NCBI GenBank assembly: GCA_964248365.1 | Contig: CAXTYC010000003.1 | Span: forward strand, 1 to 64,000 | Direction of reading: 5' to 3' | Source: an uncultured Chroococcidiopsis sp. | Lineage (GTDB): Bacteria > Cyanobacteriota > Cyanobacteriia > Cyanobacteriales > Chroococcidiopsidaceae | Length of the DNA stretch: 64,000 bases | In this document: in pieces, positions 46,132 through 53,559 of the stretch | Layout of the letters: the number at the start of each line of letters is the position of its first letter | Position numbering within the stretch: the first letter of the stretch is position 1 | Notes under the pieces: generated by a model | The model's input: the letters and a program-made list of their open reading frames with translations, nothing else | Told to the model about the DNA's origin: nothing | Database searches by the model: none | Program-made: the position numbers and the translations under genes

Positions 46132-47313
46132 ATGTATTTAAAAAGTCTACATCTGAGGCATTTTCGTAACTACCAAGATCAGCAAGTTGATTTTATTGCG
46201 CCAAAAACAATTTTGGTAGGTAATAATGCTCAAGGAAAATCGAATTTGTTGGAAGCGGTGGAATTGCTGGCGACGTTGCGATCGCACCGAATGGCGCGCG
46301 ATCGTGATCTAGTGCGGGAAGGAGAAGCCGCAGGACAAATTACTGCCACTCTAGAGCGTCAAACTGGCATTGTTGACCTCGCTCTTACATTACGCCGTCA
46401 AGGTCGTCGTAGTGTTGCGCTCAATAGCGAGTACTTGCGGCGACATCTGGATTTTTTGGGTGTTTTGAACGCTGTACAGTTTTCCAGCCTAGATTTAGAA
46501 CTGGTGCGAGGGGGACCAGAACAACGCCGCCACTGGATAGATACGCTGTTAATTCAACTTGAACCTGTTTACGCCTATATATTACAGCAATATAACCAGG
46601 TGTTGCGACAGCGAAATGCTTTGCTCAGAAGGAGTCAGGAGTCAGGTAGGGGCGGGTTTAACCAGGATATTAGTGGGACGACAAGCAGGCTAACAAACCC
46701 GCCCATACAGGAAGAGTTGGAGGTGTGGAATGCTCAACTTGCAGCTGTGGGTTCAAGGGTGATTAGAAGGCGATCGCGTGCTATAGAAAGATTAGCTCCA
46801 ATTGCCACTGCTTGGCATACCAGTATTAGTGATAGTACAGAAATATTGCAAGTAAAATACGCGCCGAATGTTCCTTTCACCCAAAATCATCCCGAACAAG
46901 TGCAACAGGCTTTTTTAGAGAAAATTGCCACAAGAGCGATCGCGGAACAGCATCAAGGTACAACTCTGGTAGGTCCCCATCGAGATGAAATTGAGCTAAC
47001 GATCAACCAAACTCCAGCACGTCAATATGGTTCGCAAGGTCAACAGCGTACCTTAGTCTTAGCACTCAAGCTAGCAGAACTCAAACTAATCGAAGAAGTC
47101 ATCGGAGAACCACCGCTTTTACTTCTAGATGACGTACTAGCTGAACTCGACCTTAACCGCCAAAACCAACTTTTAGAAGCAATTCAAGACCGCTTTCAAA
47201 CCCTGATTACCACCACTCATTTAGGTTCATTCGACTCTCAGTGGCTCAAAGCATCGCAAATTCTAACAGTTGAGGCGGGACACCTATCACCTCATTCCAT
47301 GCCCAGATTGTAG
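46132..47313 (+). CDS. recF: DNA replication/repair protein RecF
   Basis: [24 protein letters not shown] and [11 protein letters not shown] motifs. Confidence 0.97.
46646..46708. mobile_element. 63-bp palindromic element inserted in frame in recF
   Basis: Ends GTAGGGGCGGGTTT and AAACCCGCCCATAC (13 of 14 complementary). Confidence 0.7.
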
Positions 47314-47359
47314 CCACCCATGCCCACCACATAGAACCCACCACATAGAAATAATAAAA

Positions 47360-47623
47360 AATCATGCGCAGAAGAGACGTAATATATTACGTCTCTTCTA
47401 TGTTGGTTGCCCCTTCGTAAATTCCCTAGGACTAGATCGATCAACTCCAGCGGTCACGGCTAGGGTCGCTCATGTACTTCACGGAAGTCCCCCTGAAATA
47501 GCGACCCTAGCCGTAAGACCGCACAGTCAAGATCGGGCTAGTGATTGCATGATCGAGCTAAACGCAAGGACAGCGATCCACCGTCCAAATTGCAAGGCTG
47601 TTTCCCAACATTAGCGCGTGATT
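47360..47623 (-). ncRNA. Retron-like msr/msd non-coding RNA
   Basis: Terminal inverted repeat; G-U-containing stem at 47568-47586; long hairpin 47431-47542 with a perfect 15-bp core; starts 2 nt after the SWIM stop codon. Confidence 0.7.
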
Positions 47624-47625
47624 CG

Positions 47626-49263
47626 TCAGTATTGACGAGCGTGTTGCATTCGCAACGCGAGAATGTGTTCGCAAGGACCCTTATACAGCTTATTCTGTAT
47701 GTGCCAATTGCAACTACATTCTGCGTTTATTATACGCTCATCTGCATCAACTGTCAAGGCTGGGTTGTAGGTTTTTTCCCGCTCTTTGACACTGCCTTGC
47801 AGGGTAAACGCGCCTGTTGCATCACTGGTTACAGATTTTACCTCTACATTGTTGTAAACCAAGAAACGAGTTGCTTTTTCTTCTCGTTCATTGGCAAAAC
47901 GCAGCCTTTCCATTGGTAAAGGTTTGCGGCTGAGTTCTCGCACTCGATAAACTTGCTTATTCAAGTCATAAATGGCACGTCCGGCTTGGGTATATGCCCC
48001 TAAAGCACCAAGAATTACAACTCGGTTTAAACCTAGCCTTTGTGCCAGACTATCAGGGCTTTCTACCCAATTCTTCTTCAGTTGGTCAAAAATGTGCTGC
48101 TGTGTCCATTTATCTACATCAGCACGAGGAGCCATTAAGTCAAAGTTACCAGATTGTGACCAATCGTTTGCCGTCCAGCCTGATAAACCGAGGGTAAAGG
48201 ACATATCGCCTAAGTCGGCGACATAAAAAGAAGGCATACCCGTACCCAGCAGGTGAACAGTAAACTTTTTGGCGATGGGGATGAGACGTTCTAAAATATT
48301 TATACGACGACGACCCCAAACGCGAATTTCTTGTTCTTGTGTACCAGTGTAAGGCGATCGCGGACACACTACTTCAATTCCCCAAGGATCGAATATCACC
48401 CGCACTGGTTGCCCTGGTGTAAGATGATAGCGCATACTGCGTGGTCCTTTCTTTTCTTTGTGACGACGCAAGACAAAGCAGATATTGTGAATATCCATCG
48501 GATGCAAATCAAACCGCGTCGCTGGTAAAGACATGGCGGAACTAACTTGCAAAAAGCCTCTTACCCAACTATCAGGTAAATCGATTTTGACTTCTTTAAA
48601 ATCCTCTTCATTGGTAGTTTGAACTTCAAAGCCTGATGGATCAATTTCAAATTTGGTAGTCTTATAACTGCGGATTTTTTGAAACTCATCATACAGGGCG
48701 GCTGAGTAGTCGATATTGGTAGTACCGCAGGCAAATTCGTTGATATTTTTAAATACTTCGTAACTAGCACTCAGTCGCCCATAACTTGATTCATCTTGAC
48801 TGAAACATTCAAAAAAGACTTCATCAGGATGAACTGTAATTACTGGATCTAGGACAAACCAAGCATCTCGATCTTTTTGATAAAGATAATCAAAGTAGCG
48901 GCGTTGTGCTTTGTAGAAAGGTTCTCTGCGTTGGTAACTATTTTGATTTAGATGATTGAGTTCTGATTGTAATGATTTGATGCGATCGCTTACTTCTTTG
49001 CGTTGGGCTGCTACTAATTGCCAGTCTATTTCTTGTTGCTTAGCTGCCCATTCTTTGTACGCTGTTTTGTCTTTTGGTTTGAATCGTAAGTCTGAGACTA
49101 CGACGTTATGTAAGGCGCTAATTGCTTCACGAAATGCTACGTTTTGGCGTAATTCTCCGATAAAATATGTTGGTGGGCGCTTGGTGTCTGGGGAGAATGT
49201 CATCTGGGTATTAGCGCCGTCGTTAATTGAGGTATTTCCTTTGTAGGTGTAGTTGAATTCCAT
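47626..49263 (-). CDS. SWIM zinc-finger protein (type XIII retron-associated family)
   Basis: C-terminal CSC...GPCEH SWIM motif; LDPVITVHPD, FECFSQDESSY, GTTNID and WVRGFLQV blocks. Confidence 0.85.
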   Translation of the reverse strand: MEFNYTYKGNTSINDGANTQMTFSPDTKRPPTYFIGELRQNVAFREAISALHNVVVSDLRFKPKDKTAYKEWAAKQQEIDWQLVAAQRKEVSDRIKSLQSELNHLNQNSYQRREPFYKAQRRYFDYLYQKDRDAWFVLDPVITVHPDEVFFECFSQDESSYGRLSASYEVFKNINEFACGTTNIDYSAALYDEFQKIRSYKTTKFEIDPSGFEVQTTNEEDFKEVKIDLPDSWVRGFLQVSSAMSLPATRFDLHPMDIHNICFVLRRHKEKKGPRSMRYHLTPGQPVRVIFDPWGIEVVCPRSPYTGTQEQEIRVWGRRRINILERLIPIAKKFTVHLLGTGMPSFYVADLGDMSFTLGLSGWTANDWSQSGNFDLMAPRADVDKWTQQHIFDQLKKNWVESPDSLAQRLGLNRVVILGALGAYTQAGRAIYDLNKQVYRVRELSRKPLPMERLRFANEREEKATRFLVYNNVEVKSVTSDATGAFTLQGSVKEREKTYNPALTVDADERIINAECSCNWHIQNKLYKGPCEHILALRMQHARQY

Positions 49264-49363
49264 ATTTTAGATGGGATTGGTTGGGGGGAAAGATTAATTT
49301 TGACGAACCGCAGAGGCACAGAGAACGCAGAGGTAAGAATAGAGAGGAGATAGGAAGTGTATT

Positions 49364-52300
49364 TTAGTTTCTGAGTTGGGCTACTGGTTTTAGGTGGAGG
49401 GGTAGGGATATTTGAGGATAGGTTTTGCGAATTTTTAGCATGATCTGTATGGCTGCTGCTTTGTCTCCAATTGCTATAGTTGCAGATTGTCTGGTGAGAA
49501 TTTCTGCAACGAAGGAGGCGGCTTGCTCGTTTTTTTGGGCTTCGGTTTCCAGAAAGGCAAGAATTCTCTGTTTGGCGACTCTGCCGCGATTGACGCTAGA
49601 CAATACGCTGATGAAATAAGGTGTTAGTTGTTGTAGGCGTTCGGGGTTATCTATGGCGTAGTTTTCTAGATAGTTAGTAGCAAACATCTGCATATCGGCT
49701 GAGGGATGTTCGCTGAATTTGAGTAGGTATTCTTGTCCATAATTTTGTTGAAAGTTGTGAATGACTAAATCGCGCCCAAAAGAGCGGACATCTTCACGTA
49801 TACTGTCACAAATGCTAACTATTACTTCTGGTGTCCAATCTTGGGCTGTGAAGTCGTTACTAAAAATTCTGGTTGCAAATTCGCGGGAGTCATCCCATTT
49901 TGACTCTAGTAATCGCACGGCAGATAACATTTGTTCTGAGTTTGTGCGAATATGATTTAAATTTCGCACAAACATTTGTCGTGCTGCTTCACGTATGGCT
50001 ATAATTTCGTGATTTGCAAGTTTGACTATTTCGCTGATTTGGAATTCGGGTAGGAAGCGCTCGCTATTTTCTTGCAATACTAAACCACCCAATTCTTGGG
50101 CAGAGGAAGATTTAGCATGAAGTAGCAACATGGCTTTGTCTTTACTTATATTAGACATCCAATTCGGTATGTCTTCTCGTAGCAATTGCACTACATATTT
50201 ATGAATGCCTTCGTGTCTTTCTGGTGCGATTAATACATCGATTAAATCAGAGGCGATCGCACTGGCAAAGTCTGTATTATTATTTGCTAAGCGTCGAATA
50301 ACTGGACGAATGGCATGACGAATATCAGTGACGGCGTTAATTGCCATTGCTGTTATTAGTGTGCGATCGTTTAACAATTTCTCATCAGGTAATTGTCCAA
50401 AAATTCTCACACCAATACCACGTACTGATTCATAAGGAGAAGCAAGCAGTGATTCAATTAAATTAGGTGGTAAATCAACTGCCCTCGTTTCGTGGTTAAG
50501 TAAAATACGAGCGCCTAATTCTTGAATTTTTGGCATTGGGTGTCGCAGTAAGTCTAAGATGACACCAAATCCTAAGTTACGCAGTTGGGGTGTAAAGCTA
50601 ATTAGCAAAGTCTCGCCAATTTCTTTCGCCATATAGGTTTGAGTGGGTTCAAGTGCTAATACAGCAGCGATTATGCGTCCAATTAGTACCCTGGCTGTGG
50701 CATCATCTAAAATTGAGGAACTTAACAACCTACGGGCAAAAGCACGAGTATCAGCTTGTTTACTGGTGACTAAGCTGGCGATAAACTCGCTGGATGTAAA
50801 AAAGTATTCGCGTTGCGCTTCAATCCAATGGTAAGCTTGTGTACGAGCGTTTTGTGATATGCAATTGGCAGCAGCTAAAACTAATGTTTGATTAGGTTGG
50901 GCTGGGTTGTAGCGAGTAACTGCCAGCGAAAAGGCAAATTCGACTGTAACTTCGTAGGGTTTATTTAGTAGTAGGATGATGGTGTTGATGTCGAGGCGAT
51001 CGCAAAATTCTGTACTTGTCCGTATCGCTTTAGCGGCAAAATGATGTACAGGGCGACAGTCACTTTCTAATAATAGTTGTAATAGTGCTTCTGGGTGTTG
51101 TTGCCAAAGTTCAGGAAACGCTTCTTCTCTTACATTCGGTTCTGGATATCCTGGTTTGTAAGTTTCTTTGCAACGCCATGCTTTGGGATGGGAAATATAG
51201 CGCGGGCTGTTTTCGTACAGAATATGATTAAATGTTAAGTATGGCGCATAATTATCCCAAGATATGGTAATGCGATCATAGGAACGGCGTTGCTGATTCC
51301 ATCTTGTAAAGCTTGTTTGTCTAACTGGTTGAGCATCCCGATCAGAATACTGAAGCAAAACGCCTACAGCCATTTTTACATATTCAGGATCGCCCTCTTC
51401 GCCCAACTGCTTAAGAGTACGCCACACCCGCCGCCGCAAATATTCACGAGTTTGTTTACTGTAAGCTAGTCTTGCATTAGGGCGCTGCATTTCTGCTTCA
51501 AACTCGCTGATTCCGAGAGTTTCCCATTGGCGTGTTGTAGAGTTGTATCTATTATTTTGTGTTCTTAAGTACTCACCGCCTGGGAGATAGACGTAATACC
51601 CATCACTGTCATAATTTCCCGATTCTTTCTCAAACGTATAAGCAAGAATGCCAAAAATTTCTGCATCGTGGCGATATTCAGCGATTTTGAAAATGTGGCG
51701 AATTTGCTTGAAATAGTTAGGTTTAAGTGGCGCTTCGCATAAAATATCTAGTAGTGCTGGACGTACATATTCGTTATCGATTTGATAGATAGTATCGAGA
51801 ACGGCAAAACGTTTGTAATCACTGCTGTCTAAATAAGTTTTTAGTGCTGCGGCGAATGCGTCTGCTGATCCATTCTGAGCTAATTTTGATAGAGATGAGG
51901 GTAGGCGATTTATGCATTCTGAACGCGCTGCTTTAGCATTTTGATTTGATAATTTTAGTAATGCTTCAAAAGCAATCCGACGAACAAATGCAGGGTGAGA
52001 AGCATTAGACAGGCGTTCGAGGCTAGCGATCGCATATTCATCCCCACACCAACCCAACGCCCAAGCAATACAATAATCTCTCAGGGGTTCGCCAGTGCCA
52101 ATTAGCTCAATTAATAACGGTGTGGCTTCCTTAATTTTCAGTTCTCCAGCCCGCCAAATCACTCGATCTAAAGACCATTTTCTTTCGTCTCGATTCGCAA
52201 GCCGATTTAGAATAGCCTGATGGCGTGGATCACTACTGGTGAGTGTTACATCTGTGCGAGTTGTGACTAGTGCGGGAGTATTACTAATTGGTTGATTGGT

Positions 52301-52537
52301 AGTATCTTGGTAGCCTTTTTTAACTTTTTCTCTAACTAGCTGCTCGAAAACTCGCTCTGCTTCGGCTAGTGGTACAGGCTGGGTTGTCTTCGTTCCTTCT
52401 TTGAGGTTAGTACCGCGTCGTCCATAGCGAAAGTTTACCACATAGCGGTTTTGCCCCGTCTGGCATAAATCAACTTCGTAGACTTTATCTGAACTTCCTT
52501 CTTGATAGCACAGCGTAGTCCGTTTGATTAGTTGCAT
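49364..52537 (-). CDS. WGR-domain protein with HEAT/ARM repeats
   Basis: N-terminal EGSSDKVYEV...FRYGRRG WGR domain, then ~900 aa of helical repeats; GGAG SD before the ATG at 52537. Confidence 0.85.
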   Translation of the reverse strand: MQLIKRTTLCYQEGSSDKVYEVDLCQTGQNRYVVNFRYGRRGTNLKEGTKTTQPVPLAEAERVFEQLVREKVKKGYQDTTNQPISNTPALVTTRTDVTLTSSDPRHQAILNRLANRDERKWSLDRVIWRAGELKIKEATPLLIELIGTGEPLRDYCIAWALGWCGDEYAIASLERLSNASHPAFVRRIAFEALLKLSNQNAKAARSECINRLPSSLSKLAQNGSADAFAAALKTYLDSSDYKRFAVLDTIYQIDNEYVRPALLDILCEAPLKPNYFKQIRHIFKIAEYRHDAEIFGILAYTFEKESGNYDSDGYYVYLPGGEYLRTQNNRYNSTTRQWETLGISEFEAEMQRPNARLAYSKQTREYLRRRVWRTLKQLGEEGDPEYVKMAVGVLLQYSDRDAQPVRQTSFTRWNQQRRSYDRITISWDNYAPYLTFNHILYENSPRYISHPKAWRCKETYKPGYPEPNVREEAFPELWQQHPEALLQLLLESDCRPVHHFAAKAIRTSTEFCDRLDINTIILLLNKPYEVTVEFAFSLAVTRYNPAQPNQTLVLAAANCISQNARTQAYHWIEAQREYFFTSSEFIASLVTSKQADTRAFARRLLSSSILDDATARVLIGRIIAAVLALEPTQTYMAKEIGETLLISFTPQLRNLGFGVILDLLRHPMPKIQELGARILLNHETRAVDLPPNLIESLLASPYESVRGIGVRIFGQLPDEKLLNDRTLITAMAINAVTDIRHAIRPVIRRLANNNTDFASAIASDLIDVLIAPERHEGIHKYVVQLLREDIPNWMSNISKDKAMLLLHAKSSSAQELGGLVLQENSERFLPEFQISEIVKLANHEIIAIREAARQMFVRNLNHIRTNSEQMLSAVRLLESKWDDSREFATRIFSNDFTAQDWTPEVIVSICDSIREDVRSFGRDLVIHNFQQNYGQEYLLKFSEHPSADMQMFATNYLENYAIDNPERLQQLTPYFISVLSSVNRGRVAKQRILAFLETEAQKNEQAASFVAEILTRQSATIAIGDKAAAIQIMLKIRKTYPQISLPLHLKPVAQLRN

Positions 52538-52608
52538 CCGGTTGTCTCCACTATTGGTATTTAATAGTATATGTGTACTAATGTGCAAAGGGTAGGGGTG
52601 GGTATAAC

Positions 52609-52774
52609 TTAGATCTTGCATCTTTCCCATAGTCCGCCTGCTAATTAATTAGCAGGCTCACAGCCAAAGTCTTCTTAAGAAGACTACATTGGGTTGCAGT
52701 CCATTGAAATGGACTTGAGCTATTAGCCCAAAAAAGAAGTAAGGGGCGGTGATTGAAACTGGCGCAATATGTAA
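52609..52774. mobile_element. MITE/REP-like element with three internal palindromes
   Basis: Palindromes at 52636-52657 (22 bp, perfect), 52668-52685 (18 bp, perfect) and 52698-52715; imperfect terminal inverted repeats (10 of 14). Confidence 0.5.
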
Positions 52775-52902
52775 ATATAATCAAATCCAGTTATAGCAAA
52801 TGATGTATAACCTCGTAACTAGGCTCACTTCATACTAGGCTTGAGCTTAGTTACGAGCGTTACCCAACTTACGCCTGGTAACGAGTAACCCGTCACTACA
52901 GG

Positions 52903-53559
52903 CTAAGGATTGATTTGACTCAAAATCACTTTCAAGCGATCGTAATCGTCTTTAAGTAGTACGCTCAGAGTACGTCCTGCTTTAACTAACCACTCTCTTT
53001 CTGCTTTGCGTAGCTGATAGACTTGTCGAATTGCAGCTGCTATTAAGGCTTCTATGGGCGCACCTTTCACTTCTAACAAAGTTCTTAAAAAATCTAGCTG
53101 TTCGCTGAAGAAAATAATATCTTCTGGTTGGCAACGGTAAACAGCCTGATGAATTTGAGGCGGACGAGGTGGAAGATATTGATAAATCTGGCGCCCCGCG
53201 CGTTTTGAAGCTTTTTCCGGCTCAAATCCGACAATAGCAGCTCGAAACTCGGTTTTGAGCATAGCGAAGATCTGGGGTTGTTGCTCTCGCAAGTCTTGTA
53301 AAGACAACCCTAAAGCCCTGGCTCGATGAATTGAGTCGATGGGCATGGTGGTAGCATAGTATACTACGGCGTATATTTGATTACCTGACTCTTCATCCCT
53401 GGACTTTACCCAGCTACCAAATGGGGGCATAACTGGGAAACTCAATTCATCTGGTTCTAAGCATTGAGCTAAAAATTCAGTCGTGGCGGTTTCGATCACC
53501 TCAGCTAGGTAGTCTGGGTGGCGATCGCCTGTGGCAAATTGGGGTAGGGGAAGGCGCAT
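52903..53559 (-). CDS. HAS-barrel domain protein
   Basis: AEVIETATTEFLAQC, PPFGSWV and YQYLPPRPPQIH motifs. Confidence 0.75.
   Translation of the reverse strand: MRLPLPQFATGDRHPDYLAEVIETATTEFLAQCLEPDELSFPVMPPFGSWVKSRDEESGNQIYAVVYYATTMPIDSIHRARALGLSLQDLREQQPQIFAMLKTEFRAAIVGFEPEKASKRAGRQIYQYLPPRPPQIHQAVYRCQPEDIIFFSEQLDFLRTLLEVKGAPIEALIAAAIRQVYQLRKAEREWLVKAGRTLSVLLKDDYDRLKVILSQINP

Follow-up and report, generated by a model that had tools for sequence, protein, structure and literature searches.

The DNA considered here, a window of 64,000 nucleotides that is cyanobacterial by its genes and by its relatives, raises the question of what kind of RNA is encoded by a strongly folding segment lying between two converging genes, and of how such an RNA could serve a retron with no reverse transcriptase (RT) gene beside it. 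Mx162, a type XIII retron, supplied the first msDNA to be found. Type XIII corresponds to RT clade 10 as defined in Mestre 2020 (PMC7736814), where retrons are defined as contiguous cassettes. Cyanobacterial RTs were placed with those of Mx162, Mx65, Sa163, and Ne144 by Simon 2019 (PMC6868368), and published type XIII covariance models comprise A (firmicutes), B (Ne144), and C (Mx162/Mx65; PMC13712802; see also PMC8867640 among what is known on retrons).

Two protein-coding genes on the minus strand precede the RNA and carry the marks of type XIII partners:
49364..52630, minus strand: WGR and HEAT/ARM-repeat gene, type XIII accessory (PADLOC WGR_XIII, 1301 bits; Pfam WGR and HEAT_2).
47626..49263, minus strand: SWIM zinc-finger gene, type XIII primary partner (PADLOC SWIM_XIII, 821 bits).

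The WGR/HEAT gene stands 100 nt upstream of the SWIM gene on the same strand, as in type XIII, and its likelier start is the ATG at 52537, most homologues aligning from residue 32. The SWIM product has the make-up of the type XIII SWIM protein (cluster 114), with acidic residues D139, D147, E152, D185, and E224 invariant in 43 sequences, a clamp-like domain at about 241-364, a winged helix at 382-446, and a CxCx12CxH motif from residue 516; the strict pattern Dx7Dx4Ex30-32Dx37E gave no match, the last gap being 38 and not 37. NCBIfam holds no family for the SWIM or WGR protein, and the RT described below scored under its every cut-off. A sequence search of the PDB returned no real relative of SWIM, and for the RT none of 20 matches was of type XIII. 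The predicted SWIM model is of low confidence (pLDDT 65). Foldseek ranked PCNA-type clamps at the top with a weak whole-model TM of 0.17, and VIA-align matched residues 241-364 to 9-1-1, PCNA, and beta clamps with Z of 9-10 and an rmsd near 3 A across 110-120 residues, a score that a designed protein equalled; as far as the model goes, the clamp likeness is a resemblance of fold only. Prediction of an RT-SWIM complex gave scores of 0.19 and 0.25 against a mark of 0.32.

The RNA begins 2 nt past the SWIM stop codon and faces recF, so that it is flanked by converging SWIM and recF genes. Its parts are as follows:
47360..47623, minus strand: msr-msd non-coding RNA gene of a type XIII retron, assigned by fold, profile, alignment, and covariation.
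47605..47623, minus strand: outer 5' arm (a2), variable in sequence with pairing kept (five tested pairs all compensatory, 80% of cells paired).
47594..47597, minus strand: inner 5' arm CCTT, pairing with AAGG at 47415-47412 (98% of cells paired).
47593..47593, minus strand: candidate branching guanosine, the G of an invariant CTTGC (G in 76/76 rows).
47568..47586, minus strand: msr short stem-loop (99% of cells paired, three of eight pairs compensatory).
47417..47560, minus strand: predicted msd template, starting at the invariant C47417 or at G47416 and ending somewhere within 47545-47560.
47431..47542, minus strand: long msd hairpin, from alignment conservation and fold.
47400..47406, minus strand: first part of the outer 3' arm (a1), CCAACAT, from the fold.
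47370..47399, no strand assigned: dispersed-repeat palindrome of 30 nt inside the 3' arm, from the genome repeat count and the alignment.
47356..47369, minus strand: second part of the outer 3' arm, GCGCATGATT, with a run of six T, the probable transcript end judging by its sequence.

The minus-strand fold has an energy of -124.7 kcal/mol and a z-score of -9.2, inflated because the 30-nt palindrome is included; none of 200 shuffles was as good. The plus strand folds at -112.4 kcal/mol (z -8.3), and the sense strand gave the better fold in 66 of 76 homologues. Much of this architecture had been described in a first-pass annotation, and letter by letter the 5' arm AATCACGCGCTAATGTTGG at 47623-47605 followed by G47604, the short stem at 47586-47568 with its two G-U pairs, and the long hairpin, with a perfect 15-bp core (47514-47500 with 47470-47456), outer pairing to 47542/47431, and an inner ACTTC/GAAGT stem, are all as it described them. 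The pairing 3' arm is likewise present, with the qualification that the ellipsis in its description conceals the perfect palindrome at 47399-47370. An enclosure of the short stem by TTGCA/TGCAA does not hold, as it needs an additional A that two of the 76 rows have; in the consensus fold TGCA pairs with TGCG at 47566-47563. The msd range proposed at about 47410-47545 is about right, except that it should start near 47417. The description of the RNA as unannotated stands for Rfam, which gave no match at E<=1 over 46500-53500, and fails otherwise, since type XIII covariance models exist and cyanobacterial members have already been synthesised.

Homologues were collected around SWIM genes, the best 80 of 355 loci from the SWIM scan being retained. 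A profile seeded on the regions downstream of SWIM matches 71 of these 80 (best 80 of 355), always on the SWIM strand, a count that is partly circular because those same regions seeded the profile. The resulting alignment has 76 rows, the window and 75 of 80 distinct near-full-length matches, and omits four weak second copies, the window's duplicate, and matches with long insertions, which were prefiltered. Covariation, assessed by profile HMM and pair counts, is strong. The RNAalifold consensus has 46 pairs, 28 of them with compensatory change; in a 49-pair structure that includes the terminal helices, 93.0% of cells are paired, compared with 80.0% in shuffled and at most 48.2% in slid alignments, the covariation score reaches 0.373, slid alignments giving no more than 0.095, and 31 of the 49 pairs show change on both sides. 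Four pairs of the msr short stem have changes on one side, including an exchange of G-U for A-U. The base of the msd hairpin is conserved (column conservation 0.92-0.93), its middle is hypervariable yet paired (0.56-0.59), and its apex is semi-conserved (0.76); an invariant CGAxG motif marks the msd start side in the 76-row alignment. The 200-nt core is kept from cyanobacteria to Planctomycetota, Acidobacteriota, and Myxococcota. Terminal arms, an msr hairpin, and a long msd hairpin with covariation are the features expected of a type XIII ncRNA, and the element is almost certainly a type XIII retron msr-msd RNA. The same reading had been reached in the first-pass annotation, and it is borne out by the partner-gene models, by the covariation, and by an RT within the fetched flanks at 46 of the 80 SWIM loci (best 80 of 355).

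Variants of the RNA occur among the homologues. Two diverged copies lie downstream of SWIM at 12 loci (L026, L049, L054, L059, L073, L074, L078, L079, L082, L086, L090, and L101), often with one copy behind SWIM and the other before the RT. At L026, L034, L035, L049, L088, and L101 the msr loop or the msd arm is enlarged by insertions of about 25-45 nt, which suggests that inserts are tolerated. At L061, L064, and L071 a second, partial WGR gene and a weaker RNA copy lie upstream of the main WGR-SWIM-RNA unit.

The branch site is the point at which the earlier description is probably wrong. G47604, proposed there, is a G in 11 of the 76 rows, the others having T (48), C (12), A (3), or a gap (2), and was dropped for lack of conservation, as was G47598 (G in 40 of 76), although the latter sits in CAGC and thereby matches the branch context of Mx162 and Sa163 (that of Mx65 is GAGC, per Simon 2019, PMC6868368). 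G47593 is invariant in all 76 rows, directly follows the inner CCTT/AAGG helix, and stands opposite the invariant C47417 and G47416. Simon 2019 (PMC6868368) describes terminal stems that include or end just before the priming G, and a start of copying at a C in Ec86. The CCTT/AAGG helix is without covariation support because it is nearly invariant; its predicted probability is 0.035 here (mean 0.23), and thermodynamic folding favours G47593 paired in an msr helix (probability 0.86 here). Judged by conservation and position, branching would probably take place at G47593. The predicted msd DNA folds with a z-score of -5.8 and would be about 130-145 nt long, depending on where its ends fall.

The 30-nt palindrome has relatives at 12 places in the genome within two mismatches and at 32 within four, and is missing at this position of the 3' arm in the other 75 rows. 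Presumably the insert at 47370-47399 belongs with the small dispersed palindromic repeats of cyanobacteria, which it resembles in its 12 to 32 relatives and which account for the insert only, not for the RNA. Leaving aside the palindrome and short repeats, the genome has one copy of the element, including the core of about 200 nt. The inserted palindrome may serve as a terminator hairpin, and it could impair this copy of the RNA. Runs of at least five T follow 65 of 80 homologous RNA copies, and the six-T run reaching 47356 is the probable transcript end here. At L011 and L095, where the RNA lies behind SWIM and the fetched flank holds no RT, a palindrome of the same repeat family with a T-run is located just past the 3' arm, in a different place, and is possibly a recruited terminator. 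A 16-nt dispersed repeat with 91 genome copies occupies 47313-47328 of the window, at the recF end of the cassette.

A candidate start for the transcript is found within the neighbouring gene:
47729..47757, minus strand: sigma-70-type promoter, a perfect TTGACA-17-TATAAT inside the SWIM coding sequence, from a sequence scan.

This site likely drives the RNA, which would then start near 47722. Perfect TTGACA-17-TATAAT sites number eight in the 5.58-Mb genome. A homologous site with at least 9/12 matches is present in 61 of 68 loci with the RNA at most 120 nt from SWIM, and in 3 of 14 with the RNA more than 300 nt away or missing, a count that leaves out eight rows with an intermediate distance or a short flank. 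At the promoter, ATA encodes the Ile in 60 of 75 cases, compared with 388 of 2475 Ile codons over the SWIM genes as a whole. A promoter internal to SWIM would explain why the RNA tends to remain with SWIM. Among four RNAs that stand alone, three have a 9-10/12 site ending 37-41 nt before the invariant G, so that transcription would begin at the 5' arm.

The RT is encoded elsewhere. The WGR-SWIM-RNA locus contains none, which is its most notable feature and one that the first-pass annotation does not mention. The contiguous cassette of msr-msd and RT by which retrons are generally defined is not what is found here. The genome's sole match to a type XIII RT lies on another contig (G000:C24:41805-43208); it is 467 aa long, scores 666 bits with RT_XIII (next model 333), and has the N-terminal extension, YADD, NAxxH, and VTG of a clade 10 RT, with no stops. 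Its contig is 79.9 kb long and extends 41.8 kb on one side of the RT and about 36.7 kb on the other, with ordinary genes around it. Judging by the ORFs, the neighbour of the RT is a metal ABC-transporter operon, and no copy of the RNA is nearby. The RT-family matches in the genome number 14; those at L001 and L002 did not score as type XIII in the model scan, that at L003 is not so by reading, and the remaining 10 are partial. The match at L001:1174-2883 looks like the RT of a group II intron, includes an HNH part, and is split over two ORFs.

Whether this separation is peculiar to one genome was addressed in a survey of 221 genomes of the order, for which at least 95% completeness was asked. 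SWIM is present in 50, a full-length RT in 50, both in 48, and WGR in 51, including all 50 with SWIM; the RNA is present in 45 of the 48 with SWIM and RT (omitting one weak partial match in G033), counts that overstate significance because relatives are not independent. The RNA core moves independently of SWIM and is nearly confined to genomes with the RT. In 18 of the 48 genomes SWIM and RT lie within 10 kb of each other. Five have both genes on a single contig at a distance of 27 kb to 3.4 Mb, and in 25 the two genes are on different contigs. For 16 of these 25 the known room is at least 10 kb, and the other 9 could be assembly breaks; the two are thus unlinked in at least 21 of 48. The distance exceeds 1 Mb in records L030, L025, and L064 (contig C1 being taken as the named record), and these three named assemblies are single-scaffold or complete. 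Among the 30 non-adjacent cases the RNA is by SWIM in 22, by the RT in none, alone in 7, and not found in 1. Four lone RNAs that were fetched sit amid unrelated genes. These lone genes (L128:5197-5400, L129:5096-5299, L130:4820-5008, and L131:4719-4921) have housekeeping genes around them, and WGR is elsewhere too.

Separation has arisen repeatedly and been maintained. A quick RT tree of 57 rows needs seven changes between linked and split states, at least four of them forced by well-supported branches. The RT of this genome clusters with those of two split family members (SH-aLRT 96), with synonymous sites near saturation, and the two rows closest to it among the 57 are also the two closest to this genome's SWIM. 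All 14 detached RTs examined are intact (YADD, NAxxH, VTG, no stops). Three close pairs with both RTs detached have dN/dS values of 0.13, 0.08, and 0.16; by these substitution ratios the detached RTs are under purifying selection. RT and SWIM identities correlate less closely among split systems (Spearman 0.54 over 14 rows) than among linked ones (0.96 over 43 rows). In a related strain, an independent contig (run X1, 46735-51241) carries recF, the RNA, SWIM, and part of WGR, with no RT. A search of sequencing runs gave 23, each available as contigs and each sharing less than half of the query words; among four of them compared with the window, the two labelled as RNA had no listed piece across the RNA core, which has no bearing on expression. 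Six genus-mates have neither SWIM nor a full-length RT, and the RNA is missing too in the five tested; in one, G005, the genes that flank the cassette stand 240 nt apart. Five of the six (L115-L119; G001-G004 and G006) have a shorter retron-type RT, 54-57% identical, without the N-terminal extension, and no SWIM match. Single broken genes also occur in the survey (SWIM in G210, RT in G046 and G117). Taken together, the RNA very probably belongs to a split type XIII retron with its parts spread over the chromosome and its RT distant, and there is similarly high confidence that this RT uses the RNA in trans.

Possible control signals precede protein-coding parts as well. A scan found no sigma-70 pair before the detached RT, only a TATAAT beside a LexA box. 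This box is perfect and lies 39 nt before the RT. The genome has 47 such boxes, some of them in front of genes that look like lexA and ssb by their sequences; the cyanobacterial consensus is RGTACNNNDGTWCB (PMC3091678). A related site precedes the WGR gene:
52566..52579, minus strand: LexA-box-like site with a single mismatch to RGTACNNNDGTWCB, 28 nt upstream of the likelier WGR start at 52537.

Among relatives, a box with at most one mismatch stands in front of 11 of 57 RT genes, against a background of 3.1%, and in front of 2 of 56 WGR genes; on the latter figure the WGR box is lineage-specific at best. The LexA-like sites are candidate control sites before RT and WGR.

The following course of events is proposed. 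The RNA would be transcribed from the promoter inside SWIM, ending at the U-run, and the RT, made from its own gene, would bind it in trans. Priming from the 2'-OH of G47593, the RT would copy from about C47417 through the long hairpin, yielding a branched RNA-DNA with about 130-145 nt of DNA. By analogy with other retrons, the RT-msDNA may join the WGR/HEAT and SWIM proteins and keep them inactive, and disturbance of the DNA hairpin or of the complex may release them. As to output, a guard-type sensor of stress or phage is favoured over a housekeeping role in DNA damage; the sensor is held at about even confidence, and the housekeeping role is viewed as possible though doubtful.

Several other readings fit poorly. 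That the structure is a mere terminator or dispersed repeat between convergent genes would suit its place between SWIM and recF and the multi-copy palindrome it contains, but only those 30 nt are repeated, and a widely conserved single-copy core that moves independently of SWIM, nearly only in RT-bearing genomes, makes this scarcely credible. Fragmented or mis-binned assembly as the source of the split deserves equally little credence: the genome is in 102 contigs and some survey cases lie near contig ends, yet the RT is 41.8 and about 36.7 kb from its contig ends among ordinary genes, the related strain's independent contig runs from recF through the RNA and SWIM into WGR without an RT, and five survey genomes show the split on one contig. 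A decaying remnant, in which rearrangement cut the RNA and its partners off from the RT and msDNA is no longer made, the parts being not yet lost, is improbable. The repeat inserted in the 3' arm, the lower RT-SWIM correlation of split systems, and the broken single genes of G210, G046, and G117 speak for decay; they are met by 14 of 14 intact detached RTs, dN/dS of 0.08-0.16 in pairs with both RTs detached, a perfect promoter, a fully paired hairpin core, and a split common to three family members, which have synonymous sites near saturation and RTs that group as a single clade (SH-aLRT 96).

A more serious rival concerns the output only. It regards the system as a domesticated, LexA-controlled module without a role in phage defence, in which msDNA loads or regulates the clamp-like SWIM protein and the DNA-binding WGR protein. 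The single copy scattered among housekeeping genes, the perfect LexA box before RT and the one-mismatch box before WGR, the clamp-like SWIM domain (Z 9-10 over 110-120 residues), and the absence of any match to the RNA in plasmid and phage collections are in its favour, as are the vertical inheritance of type XIII in Mestre 2020 (PMC7736814) and the finding, in what was available of Millman 2020 (10.1101/2020.06.21.156273), that two retron clades, not named there, are rarely near defence systems. Against it, just 11 RTs out of 57 and two WGR genes out of 56 are preceded by boxes with at most one mismatch, the system is dispensable, being in only 50 of 221 genomes and missing from genus-mates, the SWIM model is of low confidence and a shared fold proves no function, and SOS control fits defence too. 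It is a minority possibility. Its fullest form, a cyanobacterial type XIII retron domesticated into a dispersed, partly SOS-controlled regulon that acts in DNA-damage or replication stress and not in abortive phage defence, is unlikely, if less so than decay. On that account RT, RNA, SWIM, and WGR can each stand alone, a strong promoter hidden in SWIM makes the RNA while the proteins of this lineage are under LexA control, and the msDNA hairpin would load or gate a sliding-clamp-like protein. The guard-type sensor stays the favoured output.

The RNA family itself is known; what is new is the repeated and maintained separation of RT and RNA, together with the hidden promoter. Literature searches found no published split or trans-acting type XIII retron and no description of a promoter inside a SWIM gene, of LexA or SOS control of retrons, or of a functional study of a complete type XIII system, although unread supplements and subscription papers could contain one. 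The SPIRE survey (PMC13712802) sought RNAs only within 10 kb of the RT. With SWIM and RT unlinked in at least 21 of 48 genomes, and the RNA apart from both in seven, tools that depend on neighbourhood would call such RTs orphans and miss or mispair the RNA. Repeated splitting under selection, the hidden promoter, and the LexA-like boxes offer direct handles on type XIII function, since deletion or induction can be aimed at each of the split parts on its own, in its natural setting. For retron-based editing it is of use that the alignment narrows down the branch site and reveals where in the hairpin any sequence is tolerated.

Five cyanobacterial type XIII retrons, of the same type and from the same host group as the present one, are included in the census preprint of Khan et al. 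(PMC10849725), among them Mestre-1731 (Calothrix NIES-4105), 1732 (Tolypothrix NIES-4075), 1739 (Moorea bouillonii PNG), and 1746 (Nostoc NIES-4103). They were tested there as synthetic operons of RT and RNA without partner proteins, and Mestre-1732 entered bacterial and phage editing vectors, in a set drawn from high producers of RT-DNA (PMC10849725). This RNA family is present in records of two census organisms among the loci (L086 and L025). The record of Moorena bouillonii PNG (L025, L124) has the RNA next to SWIM and megabases away from the RT, with no copy within 1.5 kb of the RT. The donor site given in the census for the Moorea bouillonii PNG retron is 215-221, against 89-189 and 115-178 for two others (PMC10849725), so that a different RNA may have been used there.

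Set beside the type XIII systems in general (PMC7736814) and Mx162, Mx65, Sa163, and Ne144 in particular, the present one shares the RT with its N-terminal extension and NAxxH, YADD, and VTG motifs, the SWIM protein with its acidic motif, winged helix, and CxCx12CxH, the WGR/HEAT gene in front, and an RNA with terminal inverted repeats, a short msr stem, and one long msd hairpin. Without the insert the RNA is about 235 nt, near the 241 nt of the Mx162 transcript (PMC6868368). As far as the published descriptions of those RNAs allow comparison, the invariant G lies in TTGC here and the branching G in CAGC or GAGC in Mx162, Sa163, and Mx65. Here, unlike in those retrons, RT and RNA are not contiguous; the RNA remains next to SWIM, and its likely promoter lies within that gene. 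A retron usually seen as one compact cassette appears here, as in many cyanobacteria, to work as scattered and separately controlled genes.
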